Notes: generated by a model from the letters alone, not told the origin. 64,000 nucleotides of DNA from Acidobacteriota bacterium (GCA_040349255.1 JBEQUE010000144.1:15524-79523); one strand, 5' to 3'. Positions 197 to 22,872 are shown, numbered from the stretch's first letter. Numbers and translations: made by a program.

Positions 197-2280
<2,084 letters not shown>

Positions 2281-2299
<19 letters not shown>

Positions 2300-4674
2300 G
2301 CGAGCCCTCCAGCCAGTCGTCCGGCGAGCAGTCGGGCGGCAATCCCTACGTCGGCCCGCGCGCCTTCCGGACCGGGGAGCTCCTCTTCGGCCGCGACCGC
2401 GAGGTGCGCGAGCTGCTCTCCATGTTGATCGCCGACCGCATCGTGCTCCTCTACTCCCCCTCGGGAGCGGGGAAGACCTCGCTGATCCAGGCCCGGCTCG
2501 TCAAGGCGCTCGAAGAGGAAGACCTCCGCGTCCTGCCGCTCCTGCGCGTCTCCTCCGCGCCGCGCCCCGAGGACGCGGAGCTTTGCCAGGGAGCCAACCG
2601 CTACCTGCTCGGCACCCTCCTCTCCCTCGATCCCGACCGGCGGATCCCCGTCGCCGAGCTGGTGCGCCTCGGTCTCGACGGCCTTCTCGAGCGGTTCGCC
2701 GAGGAGAGCCAGGACGACCGGCCGCAGGTGCTGGTCTTCGACCAGTTCGAGGAGATCCTGACCCTCGATCCGGCGGACCAGGAGAGCAAGCGGAAGTTCT
2801 TCGAGGAGGCCGGCGCCGCGTTGCGCAACCCGCAGCGCTGGGCGCTGTTCTCCATGCGGGAGGACTACATCGGCGCGCTGGAGCCCTACGTGGGCCACCT
2901 GCCCTCCCGGCTGCGCACCATGTTCCGCCTCGACCTGCTGAGCCCGGCGGCGGCGAGCCTCGCGATCCGCGAGCCGGCCCGCTCCCGAAAGGTGGACTTC
3001 AAGAAAGCCGCGGCCGACCTCCTGATCGACGACCTCCGGACCATGCTGGTCCAGGGACCGGACGGGACGGCCGAAAAGAAGAGCGGTCCCTTCATCGAAC
3101 CGGTCCAGCTCCAGGTGGTGTGCCACCGTCTCTGGAGCCGGCTGCCGGAGGGCGCGACGGCGATCGAGGCCGACCAGATCGATCCCAAGGGCGGCGACGT
3201 GGACGCGGCGCTGGCCGAGTACTACGCGGAGTGGGCCGGGAGGATCGCGCAAGGGGACGAGACCCGGGAGCGGCTCGTCCGGGACTGGTTCGAGAACGCG
3301 CTGATCACGGAGCACGGGACGCGCGGGCAGGTCCTTCTGACCCCCGGAGAAAGCCAGGGCCTGGACAACGAGACCATCCAGTCGCTGGTCAAGGAGGCCC
3401 ATCTGGTGCGGGCCGAGGCGCGGCGGGGCGCCACCTGGTTCGAGCTCGCCCACGACCGCCTGATCGGGCCGGTGAAGGCCGGCAATGCCGAGTGGCGGGA
3501 GACGCACCTCGACGAATTCCAGCGGCGCGCCCTGGCCTGGGGCGAGCGCGGCCTGTATCCCGAGGCGCTCCTGCTGCGCGGCAAGTCCCTGGAGGAGGCG
3601 GAGGCTGGGACCGGAACCCGCACGCTCACGGACCTCGAGAAGGATTTCCTGGAGGCCAGCCGCAAGGCCCGCGAGGAAGCCGAGAAGGAGCAGGAGCTCC
3701 GGCGCGCGGGAGAGGAGCTGGTCTGGCAGCGGCGCCAGGCCCGGCGCCTTGCAGCGTTCATGGTCGTCGCGCTGGCGCTCGCGGCCTTCGCGACCTACAG
3801 CTACATCCAAGCCCGGGCCGAGACGAAGAGAGCGAACCAGGAGACGGAGCGTGCCAACCAGGAAGCGAAGCGGGCGGGCAAGGCCGAACAGCTCGCCCGG
3901 CAGAAGATCGAGCAGCTCCAGGCGACGAACGACAAGCTGACCCTGGCCAGCGCGAAGCTGCTCGAACAGAGCGAGCAGCTCGGCACGAGCGCCCCCGTGG
4001 AGCAGGTCGCCGCGGCGAAGGAGTTGCTCGCGCAGACCGGGGGTGAGGACGTGGGCATACCTGCCTTGTCCACGCCGGTCCGCGTGCAGTTCTTCGCGCG
4101 GAGCTCGGGGAGAAACGACCGCGCCATGGCGGCGCTCCGGAAGCAGGGATTCGAGGTCGAGCCCGAGAAGGGCAGATCGACGGTGGTCAACGCGGTCTGG
4201 TACGGCCCGGGCGTGGAGGCCGAGAGCGTCCAGCAGGTGATCCTGACCCTCATCGGCTCCGGCGTGGAGATCCAGCGGGTCGCGCCCACCAGCAAGCCCG
4301 GCCTGATCCAGGTCGGGACCGACGAGAGGTGGCTCTATCGCGACGCCCTGACGGTAGATCAGGTCGCGGCGCTGCAGCCCTGCTCGTCGGAGGAGGATCT
4401 GGCCTGTTCCGGCGCCCTCTCGGTGCCACCCGGTGGCAATTCCCGTCCCAGGTGCCGGAACATCGTGGCCTACGCGCAGCCGGCGAGCGCGAATCCAGGC
4501 AGGGTCTACTGGCTCCGCATCACCGCCGGCGGCCGGCCCTTCGAATGCAAGGACCTGATGTCCGGGCAGGGCTGCACCTTCTCCTTCCGCGGCAGGAAAT
4601 GGACCGCGACGCTCGGCGCCGTGGACTCCGCCGGCGCCGCGGCGGACGTGCGATTCGCTCCGGTGTGCGAGTAG
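2281..4674 (+). CDS. STAND-type P-loop NTPase (nSTAND-like) with coiled-coil segments, one predicted TM helix and a Cys-containing C-terminal domain
   Basis: ATG at 2281 overlaps the upstream gene by 19 nt. N-terminal GNPYVGPRAF..LLFGRD motif, Walker A SPSGAGKTSL, Walker B QVLVFDQFEE. Hydrophobic helix LAAFMVVALALAAFATYSYI flanked by Lys/Glu/Gln-rich coiled coil. Six Cys in the last ~110 aa. Confidence 0.8.
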
Positions 4675-4691
4675 GGCGGCGGTCTCGCCTC

Positions 4692-6524
4692 ATGATCAGC
4701 GAGAAGCGTCTCAACGCACTGCGACATCTGCCCGGCTATCTGCACGAGATCGAAGACGGGGATCGACTGCGCGCCCTCCTGAGCTCCTTTTCCTTCCTGG
4801 AAAGGAAGGTCAGAAACCTGAATGCCTCCGAGCTGGTTTCTGACTATGAGTATCTTCCCGAGGACTCCCCACTGCGGCTCGTCCAGGCGGCGGTACGACT
4901 GTCAGCCTATATCTTGGACCGTGATCCTGGCCAGCTTGCAGGCCATCTTCTTGGACGACTCCTAGATCACGACGCGACCGAAATCACGGACCTGTTGGAC
5001 ACAATACGGGAGCAGCACCCCTTAGGATTGTTTCCGACTGTAGCCTCAATGACGCGGCCCGGGGGGGCACTGCTTCAAACCTTTTCGGCACTGCCCTCTA
5101 TTGGCACCATCTACGCCATCGTTCCAACCCTTGATGGGGAGCGTGTCGTGTCCGCATCCTCGGACCGGACGATCCGGATCTGGAGCCTCGCGTCGGGCCA
5201 AGCGCTCCGGATTCTGAGGGGACATGAAAGAGAGGTCACTGCGCTCAAGCTCATATCCGACGGTCGCCTTGCCGTTTCAGGCTCACGAGATCGGACGGTA
5301 CGAATCTGGGACCTGGAAACGGGTATCCAGAAGATAAAAATGCCGACAGCTCGGGGAGTGGAGGCTATAGCAGTGACGCCGAATGGCCAACAGGCCATAG
5401 CCGGCCTGGATGATGGCTCGATCGAGGTTCTGTCCATCTCGACGGAAGATGTACAGCATCTGTTCGGACATGAGAAACAAATCCTTTGCCTTGCGATCAC
5501 GCCGGACGAACAACGCCTGATTTCTGGATCGGAAGACGGAACTCTGCGCGTCTGGAATCTGTCGAGCGGTGCCCTGGAGCGAGTCGAAAGCTTTGGAATG
5601 AAGGTCTGGTCCGTAATCGCAACGCCTGAGAGCAGCAGACTCATCTTCTCTCTCCAGGATGGTACCATCGCCATCCACAACCTGATCGACGGACGCTCGA
5701 TCGACAGATTCAAGGGGCACCGCTTTCCAGCAACTTTCCTGACCCTTGCACGAGACGGCAGGACTCTGATCTCTGCGTCCAGCGGAAAGATCGTGATTTG
5801 CGATCTTGAAAACGTACACACGCAAACGACCATGGCTACGCCAGGTAATCTCTCGGCCATGGCTCTCACCTTGGATGAAAATCGCGCGTTGATCAGTAGC
5901 TATAGCGGTCGGATAACCTTGTGGGATCTCTCTGCGCTTCGACCGACGGAAGAACAGGCCGAGGAGCACAGCATTGGCTCGCTTGCCTTGATTCCAGGCA
6001 GTGCTCTTCTTCTCTCCGCGTCGGGCCGCACAGTCAAGATCTGGGATGCCGAGAAAGGACAAGAGATCCGGACGCTAACCGGGCATACGGATAGAGTCGC
6101 GAGCCTCGCGGTGTTACCAAACGGCGCTTACGCGGTCTCAGGCTCGCTTGACAAGACCATCAAGGTTTGGGATCTGAGAACCGGGGAGAACCTCCGAACG
6201 CTCCAAGGGCATGAAAGCGCGATCATCGCCCTCGCCGTCACAGAGGACGGGAAACGCGTCATCTCCGGCGGCCTTCATGCCGAAGTGAAGGTTTGGTCGC
6301 TGGAGGATGGGCGTGAGCTCTACTCCCGACGCAGACCTCGCGGCTACTTGACGACGCTTGCAGCGACCTCGGACGGGCGCCTCGCCGTTGTCGGCTTGAG
6401 GATGAGGGGAATGCATGGCCGACGATTCTCGACCTTACGACAGGTCGTGTCGTCGGAGAGTTGCGCGGGCATGAGGATCCAGTGGAGACAGCGCTTTTCC
6501 TCCCGGGTGACAACCGCATTCTGA
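4692..6524 (+). CDS. WD40 beta-propeller repeat protein with N-terminal helical arm (sensor module of NACHT-WD40 type); frame is lost near 6395
   Basis: ATG at 4692, 17 nt after the upstream stop. 'FSFLERKV' arm motif followed by ~10 WD repeats (DRTIRIWSL, DRTVRIWDL, DGTLRVWNL, DKTIKVWDL, VKVWSLEDG...). The last ~40 codons of the ORF are out-of-frame garbage. GC is lower than in the two upstream genes. Confidence 0.7.
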   Translation: MISEKRLNALRHLPGYLHEIEDGDRLRALLSSFSFLERKVRNLNASELVSDYEYLPEDSPLRLVQAAVRLSAYILDRDPGQLAGHLLGRLLDHDATEITDLLDTIREQHPLGLFPTVASMTRPGGALLQTFSALPSIGTIYAIVPTLDGERVVSASSDRTIRIWSLASGQALRILRGHEREVTALKLISDGRLAVSGSRDRTVRIWDLETGIQKIKMPTARGVEAIAVTPNGQQAIAGLDDGSIEVLSISTEDVQHLFGHEKQILCLAITPDEQRLISGSEDGTLRVWNLSSGALERVESFGMKVWSVIATPESSRLIFSLQDGTIAIHNLIDGRSIDRFKGHRFPATFLTLARDGRTLISASSGKIVICDLENVHTQTTMATPGNLSAMALTLDENRALISSYSGRITLWDLSALRPTEEQAEEHSIGSLALIPGSALLLSASGRTVKIWDAEKGQEIRTLTGHTDRVASLAVLPNGAYAVSGSLDKTIKVWDLRTGENLRTLQGHESAIIALAVTEDGKRVISGGLHAEVKVWSLEDGRELYSRRRPRGYLTTLAATSDGRLAVVGLRMRGMHGRRFSTLRQVVSSESCAGMRIQWRQRFSSRVTTAF

Positions 6525-6904
6525 CGGGCTCCTTTGATGCCACCATCCGCCTGTGGGATTTTGCGACCCGCCGGGAGTTGCTTCGACTGGAGGGGCACGC
6601 TGACAGAATCCTGAGCCTGGCGGTGACTCCGGACGGTCGCCACATCGCATCGAGCTCGGACGACAATACAGTGCGTGTTTGGCGTCTCGATACAGGGGAG
6701 TGCCTGGCTGTTTTCTTCGCAGAGGGAATAAGCGCTGCTTGCGCCATCTCGTTGGACGCCCAGTGCGTCTATGCTGGCGAACTGTCGGGGAAACTGCACT
6801 TCCTGAAACGGAAACCCTCCGTCATTCCTCTGAAAGCAAGTCCCCCCACAACACATCCGCAACCCGGCGGTTCGCTTCCATCAGATCGACGCCCTTCTCC
6901 TTGA
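6461..6904 (+). CDS. Continuation of the WD40 repeat protein in another frame (2-3 more WD repeats). Together with 4692-6524 it is either a frameshifted pseudogene or a sequencing indel.
   Basis: In this frame the WD pattern continues upstream to ~6392 (LEDEGNAWPTILDLTTGRVVGELRGHEDPV...IRLWDF...VRVWRLDTGE). It overlaps the convergent gene 6822-9968 by ~80 nt. Confidence 0.5.
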   Translation: MRGHEDPVETALFLPGDNRILTGSFDATIRLWDFATRRELLRLEGHADRILSLAVTPDGRHIASSSDDNTVRVWRLDTGECLAVFFAEGISAACAISLDAQCVYAGELSGKLHFLKRKPSVIPLKASPPTTHPQPGGSLPSDRRPSP

Positions 6905-9900
6905 CCTGATCCTTGCCCTTGATGAAGTCGTGGAAGGAGTCGTGATAGAGGCGATAGCGCAACTCCGGACCGTCGTCTCCGTCCTCCACGGAAATGGGTT
7001 GGAGGAACTGGCTCCATTCGTCGAGAGCCATCTGGACCCGGGCGCGGTCCTGAATTCCGGAGAAGTCGGAGATCAGGCCGGTGGAGATCGGCTCCCTCGC
7101 CACGGTGAGGCCAACGAGGACGGGCAGCTTGTATTCGAACCAGCCCTGGGTATCCAGCTCCTTCATGCGCTCCCACTGATCCTCGTAATAACTCTGGAGC
7201 CCTGTCGGCAGCGTTGTGAGGTCGCGCGTCTTGTAGGCTCCCTTCTCGATCTCCGGGAGGACATAGTGGAGATACATGAAGTTTCCTTCGCTGCGCTTCA
7301 CGAGCTCGTCGACAAAGGTCGCCTCGTCCAGACCCTGAGCGGTGATGTAGGCTCCGATGCCCGGCCGCAGGGCGTAATTCTGAGTGAAAAGCCGGACATC
7401 CGCGAAATTGTTCTCCCTTTCCCTCTGTAGATCGATGGTGTGGCCTTCGCAGGTGAACTGGAGCTTGAACTGGCCGCGCCGCGAGGTGACCACGGCAAAC
7501 ACGCCCGGCGGCAGGTCGGAAGGCAAGTACAGAGTGTTCGCGCCCTTCGACACCGCGCCCGAATCGGCTTCGTCCAGCGCATCGACCAGGAAAAGGAGCT
7601 TCGTCCCCGAGGCGAGAAGCTTGGTCGAAATCCCGCCCAGAAGCTCCTTGAGAAACCGGGGATCACGGGAGGCCTCCGGCGGCAGGGCGGAGTAGCCGAG
7701 ATCGAAGTCCCGGATGAGCTGCGCGCAGAGGTTGGGAAGGAACTGGGAGGGCTTCGTGATTCCTTCGGCGCGCACGTTGAAGTGGAGCGGGTACCGCCGG
7801 AGCTGCGCAAGCCTGGCGACGATCGCGGTCTTGCCGATCCCCGGATCGCCGAGGACCTGAATGTAACCACTGTTGCTCTTCTGAACGAAGTCGTCGAGAG
7901 CGTCGAAAAGCCATTGCCTTCCGACGTAGCCTTCGGTCTTGCGGCGGATGAGAGGCGTGAAATCGAGGATGTGCTTCTGGATCTCGGGCGGAGCCCGCTT
8001 TTCTGCGGGTTCGCGGACGCCCGGGGCGTCTCCCAGCGCGATCCGTCCGTTAGCGTGCGCATAGATCACATAGGTGAGCCAGGCGGGATCGTCCGCGTCC
8101 GCTTCGCGGAGAGCGAGACGCGCGATGCGCGCGGCACGGCCGAACGTCTCTCCCTGCGCGAGCGCGCCGTAAAAGCTTCTGGCGAATTCGAAGGCCCGGG
8201 AATCCCGGACCGGCCAGGCCGGCCCCAGGAAGGCGCCGCAGCCACAGACCCGCACCCAGCGATCGGCCCACCCGCCCAGGCCGGTCAGGGACCATGCCTG
8301 CTGTCCGATCCAGCAGGCATTGAGGAAGACCAGGGGGCGATTCCTGCCGATCTCCGTCGCGAGCGCTCCTGTCAGGTCTCCTGCCCGAAAGAAGCTCTCA
8401 TCCTCCAGAGGCAGGGCGGATTCATTCGGCTGATCCGGATTGAAGCCGCCGTGGCCAACGAAGTGAAGGAGATCGAGGCCTCCCTTTCCCAGAATGGTTT
8501 CGATCTCCTCCGCCGAGGCGACCGGGACGGTGGCATCCTCGATCCCGGAATGATCGCGCGCGAGATCCGTCACGAGCCCCTGCTCCTCTTCGGCCCGGGT
8601 CAGCTCGGAGCTCGTCGTGAAGCACGCGAGCCGCCGCACCTGAATCTCGGCCGCAGGGCTCCTGTTTCCCGCCAGCCACCGGGTGAGCTCAAACTGGATG
8701 CAGAGAAAATCGTCGTCGATGACGTCGTCAGGATCCTCCGCGTCATACGGCTTGACCAGCTCCCAGGGAATCCAGGGCTCGTCGGAGATGATCGTCAGCG
8801 TGGTTACAGAACGCCGGATCTTCCGGTAGAGCAGCTGCATTTCGCCGCTGAAGAGCTCGCGGTAGAGGTCCTGGCCGAGAGCCTCCAGCTTGCGCCGGAT
8901 CTCGCCACGCAGCAGCAGAGAGTCGTCCGTGTCGATCCGTTCGCCCAATTTCCGGACCTTGTCCAGAATGGACGAGCGGTATTCCTCGACACGGCCCTGG
9001 AACGACGGCCCATCGACCCCCCGATACGAGAAGCCGTCGATGCCGACTGGCGAATGGAGGATGTAATGGAGCTGTGTTCTTCCGTCGCGGAATCCAATCG
9101 TGACGCGGAGCTCGAGATCGACCGGCGCTGCGCTGGAGCTTGGCAAGGAGCGCGTTCCTCCCCGGGTGTCCAGGCCGGCGCCCTGAACAGATGCCGGCAG
9201 GGCCTTCTCCCCTTCGGAGACATCTGACTGCCGAATCTTCAGAATGACGTGTCGGAAGCCGTATTTATTTAAATCAATACCGCTCTTTGCAAATGCCCCC
9301 TGAAGAGCGTGCGCGCTGTCGCGCGGGAGATCTATAATTACCTTTGTGCTACCTTCTAATACTTTTCTGATATTGACATCTGAAAGCTCTATGTCGAGAA
9401 ACTTGGCAAGTGCATATTGAAGCCTGCTTCTCTCTACTTCGGAAAACTGTGCAAACTGCAGATCCAGGGTTACCTCTACTTTAGTAGTGGGTTGTCCATA
9501 GAGAGTGAAGGAGGGGAAATAACGACGCGCTACCTCGTGGCGTTTATATATCCTACCTTCAATTTCACGCCTAGTCCATACCGAAAGGAGATAAGGAGGA
9601 TGACTCACGCTAGTTGCTCCACGCAATTCCTCGTAAGCTTTATGAGTCACCCTCCCGTTTGTGATTAGAAAGAATCCTTCTACTTTGAACCTAGCGAGTA
9701 TGTTAACTATATTCCCAAGTTCACCTGGCTTGACGGTAGCATCTGCACTCTGCTTGTACTTGAACTGAGCAGCCCAACGCAACCGGCTGGGTGTAGCATC
9801 TGGAAGCATTATTGTCTGAAGGAGAATTGCGTCGACACCTCCGTCTGGACCAACACCCTGATCCTGCACTCCAAATCCCTCGACTGCGAGCAGGTCCATG

Positions 9901-9968
9901 CAGAGCTCTTGGAAGCGGTATCCATCGATAGTCTGCCAATCGACAGAAATCGGCCTAGTTAGTGTCAT
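6822..9968 (-). CDS. Multidomain defence protein: N-terminal Mrr-like PD-(D/E)xK restriction-endonuclease domain, CHAT protease domain, NACHT-type STAND NTPase, helical C-terminus
   Basis: 1048-aa ORF. REase motif GPDGGVDAIL...AAQFKYK at N-terminus. CHAT: EPWIPWELV, LLHFVGHGG ... LVFLNACWIG. NTPase: Walker A GDPGIGKTAI, Walker B LLFLVDALDEAD. The first ~250 codons (9215-9968) are markedly AT-richer. Confidence 0.85.
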   Translation of the reverse strand: MTLTRPISVDWQTIDGYRFQELCMDLLAVEGFGVQDQGVGPDGGVDAILLQTIMLPDATPSRLRWAAQFKYKQSADATVKPGELGNIVNILARFKVEGFFLITNGRVTHKAYEELRGATSVSHPPYLLSVWTRREIEGRIYKRHEVARRYFPSFTLYGQPTTKVEVTLDLQFAQFSEVERSRLQYALAKFLDIELSDVNIRKVLEGSTKVIIDLPRDSAHALQGAFAKSGIDLNKYGFRHVILKIRQSDVSEGEKALPASVQGAGLDTRGGTRSLPSSSAAPVDLELRVTIGFRDGRTQLHYILHSPVGIDGFSYRGVDGPSFQGRVEEYRSSILDKVRKLGERIDTDDSLLLRGEIRRKLEALGQDLYRELFSGEMQLLYRKIRRSVTTLTIISDEPWIPWELVKPYDAEDPDDVIDDDFLCIQFELTRWLAGNRSPAAEIQVRRLACFTTSSELTRAEEEQGLVTDLARDHSGIEDATVPVASAEEIETILGKGGLDLLHFVGHGGFNPDQPNESALPLEDESFFRAGDLTGALATEIGRNRPLVFLNACWIGQQAWSLTGLGGWADRWVRVCGCGAFLGPAWPVRDSRAFEFARSFYGALAQGETFGRAARIARLALREADADDPAWLTYVIYAHANGRIALGDAPGVREPAEKRAPPEIQKHILDFTPLIRRKTEGYVGRQWLFDALDDFVQKSNSGYIQVLGDPGIGKTAIVARLAQLRRYPLHFNVRAEGITKPSQFLPNLCAQLIRDFDLGYSALPPEASRDPRFLKELLGGISTKLLASGTKLLFLVDALDEADSGAVSKGANTLYLPSDLPPGVFAVVTSRRGQFKLQFTCEGHTIDLQRERENNFADVRLFTQNYALRPGIGAYITAQGLDEATFVDELVKRSEGNFMYLHYVLPEIEKGAYKTRDLTTLPTGLQSYYEDQWERMKELDTQGWFEYKLPVLVGLTVAREPISTGLISDFSGIQDRARVQMALDEWSQFLQPISVEDGDDGPELRYRLYHDSFHDFIKGKDQVKEKGVDLMEANRRVADVLWGDLLSEE
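9131..9162. repeat. ~28-bp direct repeat (GGAGCTTGGCAAGGAG...CTCC), copy 1, inside the REase-CHAT-NACHT gene just downstream (in gene sense) of the low-GC module
   Basis: Near-identical to 10039-10070 by direct reading. Confidence 0.6.
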
Positions 9969-10038
9969 TTCTTATCTCTCTCGACAAAAATTGCGCCCGC
10001 AGTCGGGTCTGCGATAACCTGGAACCGCTTCGGCGACG

Positions 10039-10070
10039 CGCCGGAGCTTGGCAAGGACTCGCTCCTCCTC
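10039..10070. repeat. ~28-bp direct repeat copy 2 (GGAGCTTGGCAAGGAC...CTCCTC), just upstream of the gene start at 9968
   Basis: Matches 9131-9162. Together the two copies bracket the low-GC segment ~9215-10000. Confidence 0.6.
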
Positions 10071-10072
10071 AA

Positions 10073-10118
10073 GGCTTTCCGTCCGTCCTCGTCGATTATC
10101 TTATCGAGACTCCCGCCT
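10073..10118. repeat. ~46-bp boundary motif (GGCTTTCCGTCCGTCCTCGTCGATTATCTTATCGAGACTCCCGCCT), copy 1
   Basis: ~80% identical to 10504-10550. In frame it encodes GFPSVLVDYLIETPA versus GFPSVRVDYLIDTPA in the second copy. Confidence 0.5.
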
Positions 10119-10489
10119 TCAAGATACGTCCGTTCAGGCCCGAGCCGTCATGACCGGACGGTAGGCGTTATCCTTCCGCCATGCGCCAGCCCATTCCGAC
10201 GCTCTTCCTCCTCGCCCTGCCGCTCCTCGCCGCCTGCGCCACCTCTTCGACACCCCCGGCTCCATCGGCGATCACCGCACCCGCCGCACAGGCTCAGGCG
10301 GAATCTCCGGCTCGCGAAGAAGACGAGTACTCCCGCTACGAGCTGCTCGAACCCGGGCTCGGCGCGGTTCCACATTCTCTTCGAGGTCACCGCGACCGAG
10401 CCGGCGCGACGGTCTACTTCAACCCGATCCGCAAGGGCAGCGCCGCGAGCGACGAGTCGGTGCGCGACCGGGCGACCGGACAGCCGCTG
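10118..10489. repeat. ~372-bp direct repeat copy 1 (5' UTR plus first ~100 codons of the lipoprotein gene). It is the degenerate copy, with compensated indels.
   Basis: Aligns base-for-base with 11917-12287 (offset 1799 bp) with scattered substitutions and two indels ~50 nt apart. Confidence 0.75.
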
Positions 10490-10588
10490 AGCGCGTACCT
10501 CCCGGGTTTTCCATCTGTCCGCGTCGATTATCTCATTGATACGCCCGCCTGTCAGTCGAACACGGAGAACGAGACGCGGCCCGATTGA
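10181..10588 (+). pseudogene. Truncated, frameshifted duplicate of the lipoprotein gene 5' end (paralog of 11980-13251)
   Basis: Identical signal/lipobox (MRQPIPTL.LLALPLLAACATSS). A 14-residue stretch differs through a +1/-1 indel pair. The copy diverges after ...GQPL into the boundary motif and terminates. Confidence 0.6.
10504..10550. repeat. ~46-bp boundary motif copy 2 (GGGTTTTCCATCTGTCCGCGTCGATTATCTCATTGATACGCCCGCCT)
   Basis: See 10073-10118. It lies at the junction between the truncated lipoprotein copy and the 3' end of the DUF4157 gene. Confidence 0.5.
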
Positions 10589-11883
10589 CGGATCTGCGCC
10601 GCACGCCGCAACACCTTGGGATCGTGGCGCAGCCGTTCATAGACCCAGGGCTCCTGGTCCCGGAGCCTCCCCTCGCGCGCCCGGCGCTCGAGCTGGATCA
10701 GGAACTCGCCCATGGACTGATAGTAATTTTCATCGTACATCTCGCCCTTCTCGTCCCAGGTGAGCTCCTCTCCGAGAAGCGATCTCTTGAGGAGCGCGGC
10801 GGCGCGGCGGTTGTACGGGTAGGTATCGAACCCCTGCAGCTCGGCGCGCTCCTCCTTCGTGATCGTTCCCAGGATCCGTTTCGCGGAAAGAGCGGCGGCG
10901 CGCGGATTGTCCGGATAACCGTTGTAGCCCTGCAGCTCGGCCTCTTCCTGCCGGGACAGCGGCCCGGCGGCCTGCTTCGCGCGCAGCGCGGCGGCGCGCG
11001 GGTTCTCGCGCGTCCCATCCGGAGACCAGAGGCCGGCGTCGAAGCTGCGGTCCCGCGCCACGAGCCGCGAGAAATGGCCGCGAAGCTCCTCCTGCTCCGC
11101 CGGCGTGATCGTCCCCGCGTCCTGTTTCGCGTAGAGCATGGCGGCGCGCGGGTTGTCGGGGAAGCTCGCGATGCCGCGGAGCTCCGACAGCTCCGGCTTC
11201 GTGATCGTGCCGAGGATCCTCTTCTTCTGAAGCGCGGCGGCGCGCGGGTTGTTCGGATACGCGTTGCGCGCCTGCCGCTCCGCGACCTCTGGCGATGGTG
11301 GCGACGGCCTCTCCTCCACGGCGGGCGCCGGAGCGCCCGGCACCGGATCGCGGGCGATGACCGCAGGATGGAGCGACCCGGCGCCGGACCGCAGGCCCTG
11401 CGCCTCGGCCGGAGACGCGGCGCGAGCCATCCGATGCGCCTGCCGCTCCTGGGCGGAGTCCGGGGAGCCGAGCTGGAGCGGCCCCTCCGGCATGGGCGAC
11501 CCGGACCGCTGCATGACGTGGGACAGCTCGTGGTACAGGCGGTGGCGGCCGGTCTCGGTGTCCGGGGCGTAGCCGCCGCTTCCGAAAACGATGTGAGGAC
11601 CGAGAGTGTAGGCGTTGGCGTGCAGCGCGCGGGCCGACTCCGCCGCGCTCTCGCCGGTGTGGATCCGCACGTTGCTGAAGTCGAATCCGAGCCGCTGCTC
11701 GGCCGTGTCGCGGATCGAAGCGTCCAGCGGTTGACCCGGATGACGCAAAGCCCCCTCCGCGGTGGACGAAAGATCCTCGCCGGAAGCCGTGTCATTCCCC
11801 CGCTGGGAAACGCGCCGGCCGGACGAGGACGGAGAACGCATTCCGGTCGAAAACCCGCGCCGTTCGTGGTCGAACCTGTTCAT
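10552..11883 (-). CDS. DUF4157-type zincin-like metallopeptidase-domain protein with C-terminal tandem ~33-aa repeats
   Basis: N-terminal GQPLDASIRDTAEQRLGFDFSNVRIHTGESAAESARALHANAYTLGPHIVFG...HELSHVMQ (HExxH). Six to seven repeats of the consensus PDNPRAAAL.AKRILGTITKEE.AEL.G. Probable ATG at 11883 with a GGGAGG SD; the track ORF extends to a GTG at 11907. Confidence 0.8.
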   Translation of the reverse strand: MNRFDHERRGFSTGMRSPSSSGRRVSQRGNDTASGEDLSSTAEGALRHPGQPLDASIRDTAEQRLGFDFSNVRIHTGESAAESARALHANAYTLGPHIVFGSGGYAPDTETGRHRLYHELSHVMQRSGSPMPEGPLQLGSPDSAQERQAHRMARAASPAEAQGLRSGAGSLHPAVIARDPVPGAPAPAVEERPSPPSPEVAERQARNAYPNNPRAAALQKKRILGTITKPELSELRGIASFPDNPRAAMLYAKQDAGTITPAEQEELRGHFSRLVARDRSFDAGLWSPDGTRENPRAAALRAKQAAGPLSRQEEAELQGYNGYPDNPRAAALSAKRILGTITKEERAELQGFDTYPYNRRAAALLKRSLLGEELTWDEKGEMYDENYYQSMGEFLIQLERRAREGRLRDQEPWVYERLRHDPKVLRRAAQIRQSGRVSFSVFD

Positions 11884-11916
11884 GCTTGCTCTCCAGCCTC
11901 CCAACACCCCACATCT

Positions 11917-12287
11917 TCAAGATACGTGAGTTCCGGTCCCGAGCCGTCATGATCGGACGGCAGGCGCTATCCTTCCGCCATGCGCCAGCCCATTCCGACG
12001 CTCTCCCTCCTCGCCCTGCCGCTCCTCGCCGCCTGCGCCACCTCTTCGACACCTCCGGCTCCCTCGACGATCACGGCTCCCGCCGCACAGGCCCGGGCGG
12101 AGTCTCCGGATCGGGAGGAAGACGAGTACTCCCGCTACGAGCTGCTCGAACCCGGGTCGGCGCAGTTCCACATCCTCTTCGAGGTCACCGCGACCGAGCC
12201 CGGCGCGACGGTCTACTTCAACCCGATCCGCAAGGGAAGCGCCGCGAGCGACGAGTCGGTGCGCGACCGGGCGACCGGACAGCCTCT
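11917..12287. repeat. ~372-bp direct repeat copy 2 (intact copy, start of the full-length lipoprotein gene)
   Basis: See 10118-10489. Confidence 0.75.
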
Positions 12288-13251
12288 GCCCTTCGAGGAG
12301 GTCACCGGAGAGGAAGCGAGAGCCAGCGGCCTGCCCGACGCCGACCTGTCGATGAGCTACATCCGCATCCACCTGCCGCACCCGGTGCCGGAGGAAGGCG
12401 GGATCCGCCTGCTGATCGAGAAGACCTACAAGGACCCGCAAAGTTATGAGACCAAAGGCGGTGACCAGGACGGGCGCCTCGTCTTCCAGCGCACCCTGGG
12501 CATCCGCCGGAACTCGATCGTCCTGCCGCGGGGTTACGAGCTGACCGCCTGCAACGCGCCGGCCCAGATCCTGTCCGAGCCGGACGGCCGGGTCTCCGTG
12601 AGCTTCATGCACCCTGGACCCGACGCCTTTCCGCTGGTGATCGAAGCCCGCCGGACCGCTCCGACCGGGGCTTCCTCACCGGAAGCAAGCGAAAGACTGT
12701 CCGAACGGGCGCACCAGGACCGCGAGATCGTCTATTTCCTGCAGCAGCCCGAGACCCACGCTTTCGACCTCTACCACGACTACACCGAATCGAGGCCCGG
12801 CGTGGACCGCTATCTGAACGTCGTGCGCGCGGGCAGCACCGCCTCCAATCCCTCGGCGCGGAACCTCGACACCGGAGAGGTCCTCAAGGTCGAGACCCTG
12901 CGCGGCGACGCGCTCCCGAAGAGCGCTGTCGAAGAAGACGAGATTCCGCCGGACGCCGACGTCGTCGTGGCCCACTTCGCCCCGGTCCCGCCGGGAGGCT
13001 CGGTCCGCCTCCGCATCTCGGAGACCTACACCGATCCGAAGAGCTATCGGCTGGAAGGAGACGAGCTCGTCTTCGACCGCACTCTGGGCCGTCCGAGGAA
13101 CGCCGTCGTCCTCCCCGCCGGCTGGCTCCTGACCGCCAGCTCAATCCCCGCCCAGGTCTCCGAGACCGCCGACGGCCGGATCCGGCTGGATTTCACCAAT
13201 CCGCGGCCGGACGAGATTGCGGTGTTGATCAAGGCGCAGCGGCGCGAGTAG
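11980..13251 (+). CDS. Lipoprotein of unknown function with an internally duplicated ~75-aa domain
   Basis: Signal peptide plus lipobox LLAAC. Two similar segments: YKDPQSYETKGG...RLVFQRTLGIRRNSIVLPRGYELTA... and YTDPKSYRLEGDELVFDRTLGRPRNAVVLPAGWLLTA... Confidence 0.8.
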   Translation: MRQPIPTLSLLALPLLAACATSSTPPAPSTITAPAAQARAESPDREEDEYSRYELLEPGSAQFHILFEVTATEPGATVYFNPIRKGSAASDESVRDRATGQPLPFEEVTGEEARASGLPDADLSMSYIRIHLPHPVPEEGGIRLLIEKTYKDPQSYETKGGDQDGRLVFQRTLGIRRNSIVLPRGYELTACNAPAQILSEPDGRVSVSFMHPGPDAFPLVIEARRTAPTGASSPEASERLSERAHQDREIVYFLQQPETHAFDLYHDYTESRPGVDRYLNVVRAGSTASNPSARNLDTGEVLKVETLRGDALPKSAVEEDEIPPDADVVVAHFAPVPPGGSVRLRISETYTDPKSYRLEGDELVFDRTLGRPRNAVVLPAGWLLTASSIPAQVSETADGRIRLDFTNPRPDEIAVLIKAQRRE

Positions 13252-15021: not shown

Positions 15022-17424
15022 TCACGCTTTCCGGCGGCAGATAATCTTGTCTCCACTCGTTCCCACGTGATCAAAATACTTGGTTATGATCTCATGGCAA
15101 TGTCGACAACTGGGCCTTATGTCCTCGTGAAGTTCTAGGATGAGGGTATCCACTCTAGGAAGCCAGGAGGCGGAGGTCTCGAGGACCTCGACCTCAGAGC
15201 CTTCGATGTCGAGCTTCAGTATGTCGATGAAAGAGATGCCATACTCCTCCATAAGCCCATCGACAGTGACGGCTGGAACGGTTTGCATAACACTCCTACC
15301 ATCTAGATCACCTTCTACGGTCTGGAATCCCCATGCTCCACTTCCACCATCGATAACCTGGACGCAGGCTTTCTTGCACCAGAGCGCCCCTCTCACTGGG
15401 AATATATTTGGGAAAGGCATCGAATTTCGAACCAGGAGTTGAAAGTTGTGTTCCTCGGGTTCGATCGCGATGATTCGGGCATCGGGATATCGCAGGGCAA
15501 AGTCAACCGATGAAGCACCTATGTTGGCTCCCCCGTCAACAATCACTTTTGGAGGATGTCCGACCTCAAGGATATGAGGCTTCTCGCGGAAGATCTCGCG
15601 ATACACATCGAGATCCGTGGTCTCTGGTCGTATGTGCAGAATGTGACTACCTTCCAGGGCAACCCTTATTGTTGCCTCGTCGAGTTCGGTCCCATTGACA
15701 CTCTCTCCAGTCTCGCCAAACGAAAAATAAGAAGTAGCGGCCAGCCCAAGAAGGCGCTGCCCGACAGGCAGCAAAGAATGGATGTCTTCCCACTTATTTT
15801 CCCATAACGAACCTTGAAAGCCGAGTTCTTTCCAGAGGCGCTCGGCAAAATTGGGCATTATTGGCGCAGAGAGGATGGCCAAGAGCTTCGCCGCGAGCAG
15901 TTCTAGCGCGACGGCTGTCCGCCGCCTTTCATTTTGCGCGATAACTCGAAGCCAGCTTTCCTCGGATTTCGCGAAGCGCCTCGCATCGCGAACGAGCCAA
16001 CCGAGGACGCTTGCAGCGCACTGAGGCGAGAACGTCCTCGCCTCGTAGGCTTTGCTCGCCTGGGCAGTTAGCATGGTTAGTCGTTCTGCGAATCGCAAGT
16101 GCTCTTCCGCCCAACTACCAGCCCCAGGCACCCGTTCCTCGAACTCTCTAGCAGCCCGAACCGCCAATTCCCTGAGCCAAGCCTGCCATTCACGGATCAG
16201 TTCCCGGTCCACGTCCGCGGCGAGCTCAGCCAAACTGAAGTTGGTCCTCTCCACCTCGGGATATGTTGTCGCCATGTGAAAGCGTAGGGAGTCTGCGGGC
16301 ACCCTGCTCAGCAGATGCTGTCCCCAGATTGCATGCTGCCGGCTGGTTGAGAACTTGGAATGATCAAGAAGACGGAACTCGTTCATGAGCAGCGCCGAAG
16401 GAAGACGGATTTGCGAGTCAAAAGCCATCAGCAACGCGGGCACCAGAACTGCGTAGTAAAAAGCATTGTCGAATCCGAAACATTGAATAGCAAGGGAATC
16501 CCCATTCTTCCAGAATTGCTCCCAGCGGCCATCGAGATGCTGGGCATAGGTGAGATAGCGCGCGGCTTCGTCGCACCACGTATAGACTGTCTGGCCCTCG
16601 AATCCTGGAATTGCAATCGGCACCCCCCAGTTATCGTAATGAGAAACAGCAAAATTCCAGAAACCAACCTGTAGAGCCTGCTCGCAGAAAGATCTCAGAT
16701 TAGAGCTCATCGCCACCTTGCTCCAATATTCCTGCAGCCTGCCGCTATACTGGTCAAGCGGGAAGTAGAGGCGCTTCATAGCCCTGAAGGACGGAGGAGC
16801 GCCGCACTGGGCGCAGACCGGATCCAGAAGATCTACACAGCGGTTGGGCATACCGCAACTCTCACATCCGCTTCCCGTGGTACGGCTTCCACAATAGGGG
16901 CAGTGTCCAGAGATATAGTTCTCATAAAGCTGGCGACGACACGGTTCACAATAGGTAGTCGGGTCCACGCGGGAAATGAGCAATCCACGGGCATACAGGT
17001 TACCTAGAAAATCTTGTACGGTCGGTACGTAGAAGAGCGATGAATTCGGCCGAATAAACTGGTCGACGTCAATCCGCGCCCCCCTGAGCGTACTCGCTAT
17101 ACTTTCCGCCATTTGGTCTGCAACCTGCTGAGGGGAGACGCCAGCCTCCATTGCATGGATCTTGACGTCACTCTGATTGTCATCTGTACCAGTGAAAAAG
17201 TGAACCTCTGCGCCACGAAGCCGGAGGTAGCGCGACTGAATGTCTCCTGCAAGGTAGGGCCCGGAGAGATGGCCCACATGCAGATCGCCATTCGGGGTTG
17301 GGGGCGCTGCCATGACAAGTACGCGAAGAGAAGCATAGCGCAACGTATCCCGGCAGTCGCTCGCCAGGCCCTCGACCGCTCCATAACTAGAAATTATCTG
17401 CTTCTTCTCCCTGGGTTCTTCCAT
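15022..17424 (-). CDS. Methionyl-tRNA-synthetase-like class I aaRS catalytic domain (HIGH/KMSKS-like, Zn knuckles) fused to a C-terminal FkbM-family methyltransferase domain
   Basis: PPTPNGDLHVGHLSGPYLAGDIQSRYLRLRGAEVHFFTGTDDNQ (MetRS-like HIGH region). CEPC...CPYC...CESCG...CAQCG knuckles. LLDHSKFSTSRQ (KMSKS-like). C-terminus VVDGGANIGASSVDFALRYPDARIIAIEPEEHNFQLL (FkbM MT motif). ATG at 17424 with GGAGAG SD. Low-GC gene. Confidence 0.8.
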   Translation of the reverse strand: MEEPREKKQIISSYGAVEGLASDCRDTLRYASLRVLVMAAPPTPNGDLHVGHLSGPYLAGDIQSRYLRLRGAEVHFFTGTDDNQSDVKIHAMEAGVSPQQVADQMAESIASTLRGARIDVDQFIRPNSSLFYVPTVQDFLGNLYARGLLISRVDPTTYCEPCRRQLYENYISGHCPYCGSRTTGSGCESCGMPNRCVDLLDPVCAQCGAPPSFRAMKRLYFPLDQYSGRLQEYWSKVAMSSNLRSFCEQALQVGFWNFAVSHYDNWGVPIAIPGFEGQTVYTWCDEAARYLTYAQHLDGRWEQFWKNGDSLAIQCFGFDNAFYYAVLVPALLMAFDSQIRLPSALLMNEFRLLDHSKFSTSRQHAIWGQHLLSRVPADSLRFHMATTYPEVERTNFSLAELAADVDRELIREWQAWLRELAVRAAREFEERVPGAGSWAEEHLRFAERLTMLTAQASKAYEARTFSPQCAASVLGWLVRDARRFAKSEESWLRVIAQNERRRTAVALELLAAKLLAILSAPIMPNFAERLWKELGFQGSLWENKWEDIHSLLPVGQRLLGLAATSYFSFGETGESVNGTELDEATIRVALEGSHILHIRPETTDLDVYREIFREKPHILEVGHPPKVIVDGGANIGASSVDFALRYPDARIIAIEPEEHNFQLLVRNSMPFPNIFPVRGALWCKKACVQVIDGGSGAWGFQTVEGDLDGRSVMQTVPAVTVDGLMEEYGISFIDILKLDIEGSEVEVLETSASWLPRVDTLILELHEDIRPSCRHCHEIITKYFDHVGTSGDKIICRRKA

Positions 17425-17454
17425 ACACACTCTCCATGGCTGACTTAAATTAGC
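17425..17454. promoter_or_regulatory. 30-bp divergent intergenic spacer between the aaRS-like/FkbM gene and the CHAT-SIR2-NACHT gene. Promoters must overlap the coding regions.
   Basis: ATG 17424 (minus) and ATG 17455 (plus). Confidence 0.3.
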
Positions 17455-20400
17455 ATGCCTGACTATAACATACCGAAGACCTCGCCGAGAAGAGTCCTCG
17501 TTCTGTCGACAAACCCTGAGGATACCGAAAGGCTAGCACTTGAACGGGAAACCCGTCAAATTGAGCGTGCATTAGCGCATCGCGAAGGAAGTTTCACGGT
17601 GCGACACGCTATGGCTGCTCACCTTGAAGATCTCGAGGACAGCCTATTCGATTTTAAGCCGCAGTACGTTCATTTCTGCGGCCATGGCTTAAAAGGAGGC
17701 CGAGGTCTTGCCTTCCAGGATGACTCGGGAAGGACGAGTCCCGTTACCACGCGGCAGCTTAAGGAGTTGTTCTCTATCTTCAAAACGAACATCAGCTGCG
17801 TATTTCTCAATTGCTGCTTTTCGCGCCCCCAGGCAGAAGTGATTTCCGCTCATGTCCCCTACGTGATTGGAACAAGTGAGGCGTTTGACGATGAGTTGGC
17901 CGTTGTCTTCGCTTCAAAGTTCTACAAGGCGATTGGTCGTGGAAAAACGGTCCCATTTGCGTTCAAGTTCGCCCGCGCTGTTACCGCCGACAATTTGGAT
18001 TCCCTGATTCCGGTCCTAGTCCGAGGGCGGCGCAAAAATAAAACAAACCCTGGAGATAGCGTCGGCTCTTCTGGCACCAGCCAGTGGAAGGCAGGAAATT
18101 TAGGGCAACCCAAGGAGTTCCGCTCGTTCGATTTAGAAGCAAAGGAAGAACAGGCTTCGTTACACCTCAATACCTCGCAAAAAGAACAGGATCAGGATGC
18201 TCGGCGCGCTTCCCTGAGCCGCCTCTGGAATCGATTAGAACAAAAGCGCGAAGCCGTCATTTTTCTGGGTTCTGCTGCCTGCGCGGAGGGCTTCAAGGAG
18301 GGCAAGCCCTACCCCAGCTTGGATGCCATCGCCAAGCGAATTCTCGATGATGAAGGTCGAAGCACTGGCAATATGACCGACGTTCGCAAGGAGCTGAGAA
18401 ATACATTGCGGATGTGGACTGAAGGGGAGGGAGATCTTTCCGATTTTCTCCGAAAATATATTTCAGGGCAGCCCGGCGCTGCCCATCACTATCTTGCAGC
18501 CTTGGCTCTAGGCCTTTTCCCGGAGTTCAATCTCCTTCTGTTTGTAACGGCCGGATTCGATGACTTGATGGAGGAAGCATTCGTCAGTCTGCTAAGAGGT
18601 GAAACCCGACCCAAGATAAGGCATTACAGCATTGGGCATCAAGAAGAAACAGTTCCTAGAATTTTCGAGGAAGTCTCCGGTCAAGTGCGCAAGGGAGTGC
18701 CTGTTATACTCAAACTATTTGGCGATCTGGACGCAGAGAGTCCCCTGCTCTACCCAAAGACCAAAATTCGTCAGAAGCTTGGGAGCAGTATTCAAGGCTG
18801 GTTCAGCCGTCCCGTGCTCTTCATCGATTGCGGGCCCGAGGATAAAGCCTTTGAAGATTTGTTCTTTAAGACAGAAAAGCGTGGCCCCTTGTTTGTTATT
18901 GGTAAGAACCTTGCACAATATCGAAACGATCCTACTATTCATCATGTCGCCATATCGCTCATGGAATTCGGCCTAGAGTTCCTCGATATGGTGAGATCTA
19001 AAAATCAGGACCTTCTTAAGCGGGTAGAAGATCTCCTGCATAATGTAGATCCTCTCGCGCTCTATCCTGATTGTGAATCTATCATGGCACGCGCCGCTAT
19101 CGCCTCTCGCGCTTCGTTACTACGGGTGGAAGAGCGACTGCCGCGTAGCCGTTCCAATGAGGAAGGCCACGCCTTTGTGCCCATCGCTCGAATTGACACG
19201 CAACCTGATTTCGCGGCCTTCTTGCGGGACGGTAGGCCTCTCCTTGCATTAATCGGTGATTCCGGTTCCGGTAAGTCTACTCTCTTCTACCAAGTCCACC
19301 AAGCCGCGGGTGCTTTCATTTCGATCTTTTATGACATCCATCAACTTCAGGCCACGCGCACGCTTGCTGGTAGGCTTGCCCACGACTTCCTCTGTGACGA
19401 ACGCAATTTCGTCGACCTTGTTAGAGTACTCGACAAGGCATTGAAATTTGAGCAGCGAAAGCTTGTCATTTTTATTGATGGACTCAACGAAAGCCTTGAT
19501 CTGAAGCCTTCCACCTTGCGCTTTGAAATCGAGGATCTTGGCGCGAAACTGCCAGGAACAATCAAGATTGCCTATTCGTGCCGCAGAGTCTATTGGGACA
19601 ATTTCATCCGCAATACATCGCCGCTTTCCAAAGAACTATACTTTAATTCAAAAGAAATAGTTCTAGAGCACTTTTCTCCAAGAGAGGCGGAAAGCGCCTT
19701 CAAGTCATACCAGGAACTTTACGGATTCCTCGGTAACTATGCTTCATTGAGCTCCGAATTCAAGTTGAGAATTAAGGACCCGCTGATGTTGCGTATGCTC
19801 GCAGAGGGTTACGCGGGGAAGAAGCTTCCTGATTTCGCGCCTGCAGTGCTGATCTTCGATACTTACCATAAACGTTTCCGGCAGCGCTTCAAAGGCACTG
19901 TTGTACCGGCTTTCCTCGATGCGCTAGTGGCCGCGAAGGTAAATGAGACCGAGGCGGAACTCGCCTCCGATCAGTTCATCACTGAAGATGTGCGAACGCA
20001 CCCGAAACTCAGTCTTCTGATTCAACAGCAGATGTTGAATGCGCATCGGGGTGGGGACCCACTCCTGCTCCTCGAAGATGAAGGGATACTGACAGCTATC
20101 GATGACGATAGCACATCCTATCGATTCGCCTACGACCGGTTTTTTGAATATCTACTCGGAAAATCACTTTCAAAACTTCTGACTACCGGTTCTAGAGAGA
20201 GGTTCCGAGAGCGTCTTGAGAAGCAGATACGTAGATTAAGCCCCTTTCATTTTTCCTTCCTGCAAGCGCTGAAGTCGGAGGTCATTCGTCTCAACATTCT
20301 CGAGCCAAGCGGGCCCTGCTCCTTTTACGACCCTGAACTTGTGAGAGGACTTCTTGAGAACGAGGATGCGGGGATCGTTGCGTTCACGAAGGACCTGTTA

Positions 20401-22144: not shown

Positions 22145-22867
22145 TCAACTGTGTAATGCGCGAGGGGCTTTGACTAGATGTTTGTGGTCGTTTTCGCCAG
22201 GGCCAAAGTATTCCCGGTTGTTGCAGCGGCGGCATATCTCTGAAGCCTCCTGCCTTTTGCCTTCTTGGAGCAGGTTACGGAGGTGGACGAATCGCGGGGA
22301 AAACCAAATCTCCTCAAGAGTCTGAACCGATATATTTCCCATGACATGGCTTCGCTCGGCGTCGTCACAGCAGAGCAGGACATCCCCGCCAACTGTAATT
22401 ATCAACATGTCAGTCGGAGCATAACATGGCAAGAACAGTGGCTCCTCCGTTGTACCCAGGAGCCCACCTCGATTCACAAGAACAAGATCCGAGGGGAACT
22501 GGATCGTCTGATAGGGCCTTTCCGGCATCGGCTCATAATCATGGCGTGTCACAATGAAGTGATCTATGCCGGCCTCCCTTAGGGAGGTGTAACGCTCATC
22601 AAGGAGAAGGTCTCCGTTGGTGAATAAAACCTGAAATGCATTTGGAAGACGGGCGGCCGCCTTCCTTACCAAAGTTTCCAGATCGCGACGCAAGAGCGGC
22701 TCATTGAACAAGTGATACGATAGGTTCCCTTGGAAATTGACCCGCTCCAACTCGGAAACAATACGATCGAACAACGATTCGCTCATAAAGAGATCGGTCT
22801 TGGGCGCGGGTAATACCGACACGGGGCAATAGCTGCACCGGCGATTGCACCGAGCATTGACCTCCAT
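22145..22867 (-). CDS. Small radical SAM enzyme with SPASM/twitch-like C-terminal Cys cluster (BtrN-like size)
   Basis: CNRRCSYCP (CxxxCxxC) near the N-terminus. C-terminal LLCCDD...CRRCNN. The start is taken at an internal Met (MEVNARCNRRC), which leaves a 5-nt gap after the DegT stop; the track ORF extends to 22966. Confidence 0.7.
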   Translation of the reverse strand: MEVNARCNRRCSYCPVSVLPAPKTDLFMSESLFDRIVSELERVNFQGNLSYHLFNEPLLRRDLETLVRKAAARLPNAFQVLFTNGDLLLDERYTSLREAGIDHFIVTRHDYEPMPERPYQTIQFPSDLVLVNRGGLLGTTEEPLFLPCYAPTDMLIITVGGDVLLCCDDAERSHVMGNISVQTLEEIWFSPRFVHLRNLLQEGKRQEASEICRRCNNREYFGPGENDHKHLVKAPRALHS

Positions 22868-22872
22868 TTCGA

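Follow-up and report, generated by a model that had tools for sequence, protein, structure and literature searches.

A single gene in a 64,000-nucleotide stretch of DNA from an Acidobacteriota bacterium (GCA_040349255.1 JBEQUE010000144.1:15524-79523; the whole stretch is referred to as the window) encodes a 1048-residue protein which combines a predicted Mrr-type nuclease, an RRM-like adaptor, a CHAT caspase-like protease and a STAND NTPase in one chain. We are highly confident of this anatomy and of the chimeric origin of the gene. In the scenario we propose, a nuclease-adaptor module from a family otherwise fused to extracytoplasmic function (ECF) sigma factors would have entered a CHAT-STAND gene of this metagenome-assembled genome (MAG) by recombination within its first codons. 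The event would have duplicated a ribosome-binding site (RBS) and TTG start, so that the upstream copy now opens a leader open reading frame (ORF) and the downstream copy persists at residue 275 of the long ORF. The gene is regarded as a chimera because its relatives begin at residue ~275-283 and lack the head, because codon composition breaks at the junction, because the head is closest to the sigma factor fusions and because a direct repeat flanks the insert. Judged from the sequence, the individual domains are all known and their combination is a one-off.

The ORF (6822..9968, minus strand; 1048 amino acids plus stop) is uninterrupted, and an in-frame TAA lies two codons 5' of its ATG. An earlier note on this DNA had described a single-chain protein with the domain order Mrr-CHAT-NACHT. 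All motifs quoted there were found in the ORF in the order given, and the order and identities of the domains were right; the adaptor between nuclease and protease had been missed. The chain opens with the Mrr-type PD-(D/E)xK nuclease domain (residues 13-155; 9504..9932, minus strand) with the key residues E21, D42, D46, Q68 and K70. It is followed by the adaptor, an RRM-like beta-alpha-beta-beta-alpha-beta domain that resembles TRADD-N (residues 161-248; 9225..9488, minus strand) and carries an invariant G206-S207 at the beta2-beta3 turn. A GC-rich (0.71) disordered linker (residues 249-282; 9123..9224, minus strand; predicted local distance difference test score (pLDDT) <50 at 246-277) holds the ancestral RBS and start. 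The CHAT caspase-like protease block (residues 283-650; 8019..9122, minus strand) consists of a beta-rich N-subdomain (283-363) and the protease with its H506/C552 dyad. The C-terminal NACHT-clade STAND NTPase block (residues 651-1048; 6825..8018, minus strand) contains Walker A (707-714), Walker B (795-800), lid and winged helix, and ends in a short tail free of repeats. The catalytic motifs of nuclease, protease and NTPase all read as intact. A search of the PDB with the whole protein sequence gave nothing useful. For structure prediction, residues 1-249 were modelled separately with ColabFold (mean pLDDT 81), and this model is the basis for the fold of the N-terminal module. The full-length AlphaFold2 (AF2) model was poor over this module, where the rows of the sigma factor fusions were misaligned, and was used for residues 283-1048 (pLDDT ~90).

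The earlier note had named the nuclease fold of the N-terminal domain as a point on which its reading hung, and this fold is well supported. Mrr_cat (PF04471) matched residues 13-118 with 41.4 bits (Pfam cut-off 21; E 1.8e-10), and the core of the modelled head adopts the alpha-beta-beta-beta-alpha-beta arrangement of restriction endonucleases. D42, D46, Q68 and K70 are invariant in six relatives, and position 21 is either E or D. The head is thus a predicted PD-(D/E)xK nuclease of Mrr type. Residues 1-245 are closest to the N-terminal halves of ~450-residue Mrr-adaptor-ECF sigma-70 proteins (49-59% identity over 84-88% of the module length), in which all nuclease motif residues are kept. A description of such fusions was not found in the literature searched. 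The family is small (P0055-P0058; L003 8001-9365; L004), and one member comes from a Thermoanaerobaculia MAG. A gene for a bacterial HET-domain protein lies 2 kb downstream of the sigma fusion in L003, the surroundings of which contain no obvious defence island and no anti-sigma partner. A search with the module profile added only ~20 proteins, in which the same Mrr clade is joined to receiver domains (with or without HATPase), to a Shedu-type DUF4263 nuclease or to retropepsin-like (Asp) proteases. Among phage records no match to the N-terminal module was found, and among plasmid records only the adaptor domain matched, in Acaryochloris.

The remainder of the protein, its core (residues 283-1048), belongs to a large family of CHAT-STAND proteins of ~775 residues. 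An exhaustive HMMER search returned 15037 relatives (E<=1e-3); residues 1-265 are covered by none of the best 150. The closest homologs are 764-786 amino acids long, share 47-73% identity and begin at target residue ~275-283. The genes upstream of them are unrelated and code for an aminotransferase, a divergent TIR-kinase or a co-oriented WD40 protein. Each of the two blocks is also found without the other and with different partners, which are TIR_2, NNH2, alpha/beta-hydrolase or N-terminal WD40 for the STAND block (~655-1047) and TIR_2, nSTAND5, EAD2 or N-terminal TPR for the CHAT block (~278-650). P0083 (1044 amino acids) has CHAT and NACHT at the same positions as the target, preceded by ~300 unrelated helical residues, and the catalytic Cys of its CHAT domain is replaced by Ala; from its sequence, the protease of this CHAT-STAND variant appears to be inactive.

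The junction between the two parts is legible in the DNA. At third codon positions, the G+C content (GC3) rises from 0.45 in codons 1-248 to 0.80 in codons 283-1048 (chi-square 108, p 3e-25); host core genes have 0.92-0.95. GC switches abruptly at ~9240 and ~10000. The AT-rich insert is flanked by an imperfect 39-nt direct repeat with 33 of 39 positions identical, the copies lying 908 nt apart and sharing a longest exact run of 15 nt. Its local alignment score of 46 compares to maxima of 29 in 2000 shuffles and 31 in 2000 random host pieces. Copy A lies within the ORF (9123..9161, minus strand) and comprises GGAGGA, a 9-nt spacer and a TTG at 9146, which is residue L275, where the homologs start. 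By its sequence, copy A represents the site at which ribosomes bound and translation began in the ancestral CHAT-STAND gene. Copy B lies 5' of the ORF (10031..10069, minus strand) and likewise has GGAGGA, a 9-nt spacer and a TTG, at 10054. This duplicated TTG opens a 29-codon leader ORF (9965..10054, minus strand), which terminates in a TGA that overlaps the start codon of the long ORF (ATGA), an arrangement that suggests translational coupling of the leader to the 1048-codon ORF. In leader copy B a promoter-like site, a consensus match only, was recognized (TTGAAG-16-GATAAT; 10095..10122, minus strand); no such site of its own was found at copy A. A third, partial copy of the leader (10489..10555, minus strand), with promoter-like CTGACA-17-GATAAT and GGGAGG, directly follows a DUF4157/eCIS_core gene. 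The possibility that the leader repeat is a dispersed element was considered and rejected, as it occurs at three local sites only.

An AT-rich piece of ~0.8 kb from another organism joined in silico could produce a similar picture: the sequence comes from a MAG, GC changes abruptly and no other instance of the fusion was found. We consider such a misassembly very unlikely. It would take two false joins within 0.8 kb, and the DNA to either side is host-like. De Bruijn assemblers typically use k-mers longer than 15 nt, which is the longest exact run that the imperfect repeat offers. Moreover, reading frame, donor start codon and the ATGA overlap to the leader ORF fit together coherently, and the neighbouring genes are intact except for one frame change. 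Further support for real DNA is provided by a 130-residue fragment (P0207) from an independent sample, which is 90% identical to the head.

The adaptor, here called domain 2, was modelled by ColabFold as a separate fold with the topology given above, and it is common to the target and the ECF sigma fusions. G206-S207 does not vary among five family members and recurs in a homolog in Acaryochloris marina, encoded on the plasmid pREB2 (tblastn E 4e-4, BLASTP E 1e-7, hhalign probability 97.5%). This protein, annotated as hypothetical (WP_012167159.1; L007 4038-5768), consists of a PNP_UDP_1 (PNPase) head, the adaptor and an uncharacterised tail of ~170 residues. pREB2 is a conjugative plasmid, and a sigma-70 domain protein is encoded 1.8 kb downstream of WP_012167159.1. 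Domain 2 is thus found between an enzymatic head and a varied tail, as Mrr-domain 2-CHAT-STAND in the target, Mrr-domain 2-sigma in the donor family and PNPase-domain 2-X in Acaryochloris. Bacterial TRADD-N domains have been described as RRM-like two-layer alpha+beta domains of ~90 residues with a tiny-residue-Ser ('uS') motif at the beta2-beta3 turn, flanked by REase (restriction endonuclease), PNPase or caspase heads and with a C-terminal caspase or STAND module (Kaur et al. 2021, PMC8195603). The parts list and the order of these proteins, an enzymatic head, a ~90-residue RRM-like domain and a caspase, STAND or ECF-like helix-turn-helix tail, recur in the target and in the donor family. Profile evidence for membership is slight: Pfam TRADD-like_N matched one of five domain 2 members (E 0.019) and did not match the target, and KIAA0319_C (E 0.0014) stayed under its cut-off. 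A domain 2 profile searched against PDB sequences gave no TRADD match and only ribosomal-protein matches at chance level. Because topology, Gly-Ser motif and position fit but profile evidence is confined to E 0.019 in one of five members, we call the domain TRADD-N-like and not a TRADD-N member. Assignment to a named family was dropped, Pfam giving these sub-threshold matches alone.

The protease of the core is well defined. CHAT (PF12770) matched residues 364-627 with 65.6 bits (cut-off 24; E 6.4e-18), in line with the claim of the earlier note. Foldseek retrieved separase, Csx29, SAVED-CHAT and DdvA as structural matches for the block, the first three at E 1e-8 to 1e-7, and the dyad H506 (GHG) and C552 (NAC) is conserved across CHAT-bearing relatives. 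In the NTPase block, GDPGIGKT (707-714), LVDALDE (794-800) and the sensor-1 arginine motif TSRR (828-831) are conserved in the family, along with a GNFMYL lid motif. The AF2 model (pLDDT ~90 over 680-1045) shows a tripartite module of nucleotide-binding domain, helical lid and winged helix, and its structural matches in Foldseek are ORC/Cdc6, MalT, CED-4 and the plant and animal NLRs RPP1, Sr35 and NLRP7. The target itself is under the Pfam gathering thresholds (NACHT 23.1 versus 26.7 bits, AAA_16 32.5 versus 32.6, NPHP3_N 18 versus 24.8), while its relatives P0083 and P0092 exceed the NACHT cut-off with 27.6 and 40.5 bits. With the Walker B motif VDALDE and the lid, the label 'NACHT-type' given earlier is a fair one.

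In most of the listed relatives the STAND block reaches within a few residues of the protein end; the exception is P0091 with an uncharacterised C-terminal extension of ~830 residues. The closest un-fused homolog, P0004, has a 790-residue WD40 gene (L006 3586-5958) 43 nt upstream. In P0085, WD40 is fused N-terminally to the same STAND block, and in P0067 a TPR is N-terminal. Sensor-type repeats in the CHAT-STAND family are located upstream of the NTPase and not downstream.

What could such a protein do? Bacterial systems with a constant caspase and a variable C-terminus, including STAND NTPases, have been described, and autoproteolytic deployment of effectors has been proposed for them (PMC7159879). 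We favour the view, by analogy, that a STAND switch controls a caspase-like protease in the core, much as described for EACC-caspase and bacterial Apaf-1-like systems. A trigger would free the STAND NTPase, which would form a nucleoside triphosphate (NTP)-bound oligomer. Proximity in the oligomer would activate the CHAT protease, as CED-4/Apaf-1 does for caspases, and the oligomer may also gather the Mrr heads for DNA cleavage, in the manner of the nuclease-headed Avs3/Avs4. An infected cell would then stop growing or die. The ~35-residue disordered linker is a candidate, though speculative, CHAT cleavage site from which the nuclease could be released. Because a C-terminal repeat array is absent, the sensor of the trigger would have to be in the core or in a trans partner. 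We give roughly even chances to the overall reading, that this is an abortive-infection-type STAND protein in which oligomerisation activates the protease and, in the chimera, the nuclease too; its mechanistic part, built on analogy, is more tentative and somewhat doubtful. Expression, trigger, oligomerisation, both enzymatic activities and the defence role are inferred. The earlier note had proposed NTP- or ligand-triggered oligomerisation leading to DNA cleavage, possibly with CHAT-mediated maturation. As a proposal this is plausible, but it leaves out of account the singleton status of the fusion, the recent graft, the surviving ancestral internal start and the lack of a ligand-sensing repeat domain.

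The grafted head would occupy an effector position since the adaptor also accepts a PNPase head, since its catalytic residues are invariant and since Mrr/Cap4-type heads are effectors in characterised Avs proteins. The fusions of the Mrr clade to Shedu nuclease and Asp-protease speak for the same position, as do the TIR, alpha/beta-hydrolase and NNH2 heads that the STAND block carries elsewhere.

Several observations weigh against this reading. The fusion is a singleton: no second case was found in searches with the full protein, the N-terminal module or the module profile, in an exhaustive representative search, or among 5.8 billion protein clusters, 185,579 species genomes and JGI metagenome contigs. 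The chimera may be too young for selection to have tested it, given that GC3 is un-ameliorated and that an internal RBS and start survive. A sensor domain is missing from the AF2 model, in which C-terminal TPR, WD40 or LRR repeats are absent and the protein stops ~40 residues past the winged helix, and a conserved partner gene was not identified for the target. Defence-system models (PADLOC, NCBIfam) match the ORF only weakly and partially, with STAND_TPR and Avs1b over the NTPase and BovA over CHAT. The sole identical database protein, MES1243467.1 ('MAG: CHAT domain-containing protein [Acidobacteriota bacterium]'), is annotated as 928 residues from a GTG at 9608 (residue 121), inside the Mrr fold, and loses the nuclease domain. 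Because this start cuts the Mrr domain, searches of annotated proteins would miss the nuclease-headed architecture. Finally, the usual partners of the Mrr head, sigma factors and receiver/kinase modules, are signalling outputs, which is awkward for an effector role. As the same head is elsewhere joined to sigma factors and receiver domains, this role is not to be taken for granted.

The singleton status and the intact internal Shine-Dalgarno sequence and TTG, exactly where the homologs start, would also be expected of a young neutral or mildly defective chimera. Here the working product would still be the ~774-residue CHAT-STAND protein from the internal GGAGGA-TTG, and the head would add nothing or be in the course of being lost. 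A 5' fragment of a Mrr-adaptor-sigma gene would simply have landed in frame in the CHAT-STAND leader and first codons. An in-frame landing has a chance of 1/3, a GC-rich linker of 34 codons is easily stop-free, and GC3 of the insert (0.45) has not been ameliorated toward the host value of 0.8-0.95. Rearrangement is visible in the DNA around, where the leader occurs three times and a gene fragment of 340 bp is duplicated. However, all 248 grafted codons are intact, the catalytic and structural invariants are preserved and the donor's natural start codon is kept. The ATGA overlap would pass ribosomes from the leader into the long ORF, and because copy A has no promoter-like site, any transcript with the internal start also carries the long ORF. 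In addition, effector-adaptor heads on a caspase/STAND chassis are a recognised functional architecture (PMC8195603). On balance we regard a neutral chimera as rather improbable.

The signalling partners of the Mrr clade suggest a different role for the head, namely that of an input or tether which would bind or nick foreign, modified or damaged DNA and signal via the adaptor to the core, with CHAT as the sole effector. The same clade stands N-terminal to an ECF sigma factor or to a receiver (with or without HATPase), a C-terminal sensor is absent from the STAND block, and the relatives described above (P0067, P0085 and the WD40 gene of L006) hold their sensor-type repeats N-terminal to or upstream of the core. 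The conserved catalytic residues and the nuclease effectors of Avs proteins point to the effector position instead, and a sensor role of the head appears unlikely to us. Slightly less likely still, the locus could produce two proteins, since RBS and start codon were duplicated by the graft: the ancestral 774-residue CHAT-STAND form from TTG275 and the 1048-residue nuclease-headed form from the ATG via the leader ORF. Through the STAND module common to both, they would co-assemble into mixed oligomers.

Comparison to known systems places the protein between several groups. Avs/bNACHT proteins with N-terminal Mrr/Cap4-type nuclease heads, such as Avs4 (PDB 8dgf), differ in having a C-terminal TPR-like sensor, which the target lacks, and the target in turn has a CHAT protease and an adaptor between head and NTPase. 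It fits no defined Avs family, as the PADLOC Avs1b model reached 26 bits over the NTPase only and NCBIfam Avs1b 18 bits against a cut-off of 1500. The EACC1/EACC2-caspase systems share the constant CHAT/caspase block (278-650) with a variable C-terminus, be it TIR_2, nSTAND5, EAD2 or the present STAND, but no EACC-type gene is seen upstream of the target or its homologs, and no small upstream gene is visible in L001, L002, L005 or L006. Apaf-1-like caspase-STAND forms have a beta-propeller sensor, which the target is without, and the additional nuclease-adaptor head is unique to the target. With the restriction endonucleases Mrr, MspJI, AspBHI and AF1548 the target shares the fold of the catalytic domain and the D...QxK motif, which is the motif of Escherichia coli Mrr. 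Unlike these enzymes, it has no DNA-recognition domain (Mrr_N, SRA or similar), and its nuclease is a module of multidomain signalling or conflict proteins rather than a stand-alone enzyme. Csx29 (Craspase), SAVED-CHAT and the anti-sigma factor DdvA share the caspase/separase-like fold and the His-Cys dyad; they are switched by RNA-guided complexes, cyclic nucleotides or membrane signals, whereas the switch attached to the target is a STAND NTPase.

The target lies in a region of mosaic composition with 58-62% GC, compared to ~70% in the high-GC parts of the window. A direct duplication of 340 bp, ~93% identical with two 1-nt indels, is found at 10150-10490 and 11949-12289 (plus strand). It corresponds to the 5' end of a lipoprotein-like gene (11980-13251), and the two copies bracket the DUF4157/eCIS_core gene (10552-11907, minus strand), which encodes an HExxH motif and several 'NPRAAAL...ITxxExxEL' repeats. 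One copy of the duplicated fragment is situated between leader copy B and the third, partial leader copy. The neighbourhood of the target has clearly been rearranged.

Convergent to the target lies a co-oriented set of three genes, comprising a CHAT-SIR2_2 gene (197-2299, plus strand), an nSTAND1 gene (2281-4674, plus strand; its ATG at 2281 overlaps the stop of the preceding gene) and a WD40 gene (4692-6904, plus strand; ATG at 4692), in which the frame changes once, at a GGGG run near 6400. The 3' ends of the WD40 gene and the target overlap by 83 nt. A reading of 197-6904 as one giant gene with multiple frameshifts was rejected, since translation across the junctions gives three genes with their own starts and one frame change. 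The set resembles a STAND system whose effector, NTPase and sensor are encoded by separate genes. A single-chain CHAT-SIR2_2-AAA_16/NPHP3_N STAND protein of 1484 residues (17455-21909, plus strand) is encoded in a 50-56% GC island and gave weak PADLOC matches to 'chat' and Avs2; it is probably a second dual-effector STAND in the window, of the protease-plus-NADase type. The earlier note had spoken of two further CHAT/STAND architectures, which holds for the single chain at 17455-21909; the other is made up of the three separate genes. Because two more systems of the window combine CHAT, SIR2 and a STAND NTPase, a protease with a second effector on a STAND chassis is a local theme.

The segments 15022-17430 (minus strand) and 22145-25379 (minus strand) comprise a methionyl-tRNA synthetase fused to an FkbM-type methyltransferase and, adjacent to it, a radical-SAM/SPASM protein, a DegT-type aminotransferase and a myo-inositol-1-phosphate synthase. 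GC3 of all these genes is ~0.57-0.63, well below that of the host core genes, and they probably represent a separately acquired biosynthetic island.

The value of the locus lies mainly in the graft scar and the adaptor domain and not in a new mechanism; should the chimera be inactive, the defence-rich island simply has a further CHAT-STAND gene. The analysis corrects a public gene model in which the nuclease domain is cut, and it reveals a small adaptor domain which pairs with REase or PNPase heads and with sigma factor or protease-STAND tails. If the two-protein reading were true, an immune STAND could try a new effector-adaptor head without losing its original function. As a rule, shuffling of heads on STAND, caspase and adaptor chassis is deduced by comparison of completed architectures. 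At this locus the DNA still records the event, with donor and recipient families identifiable, a breakpoint placed within a few codons, a compositional break and a duplicated translation start. With this locus one can thus ask, on an actual example, how immune architectures originate and whether a new one functions from the outset.

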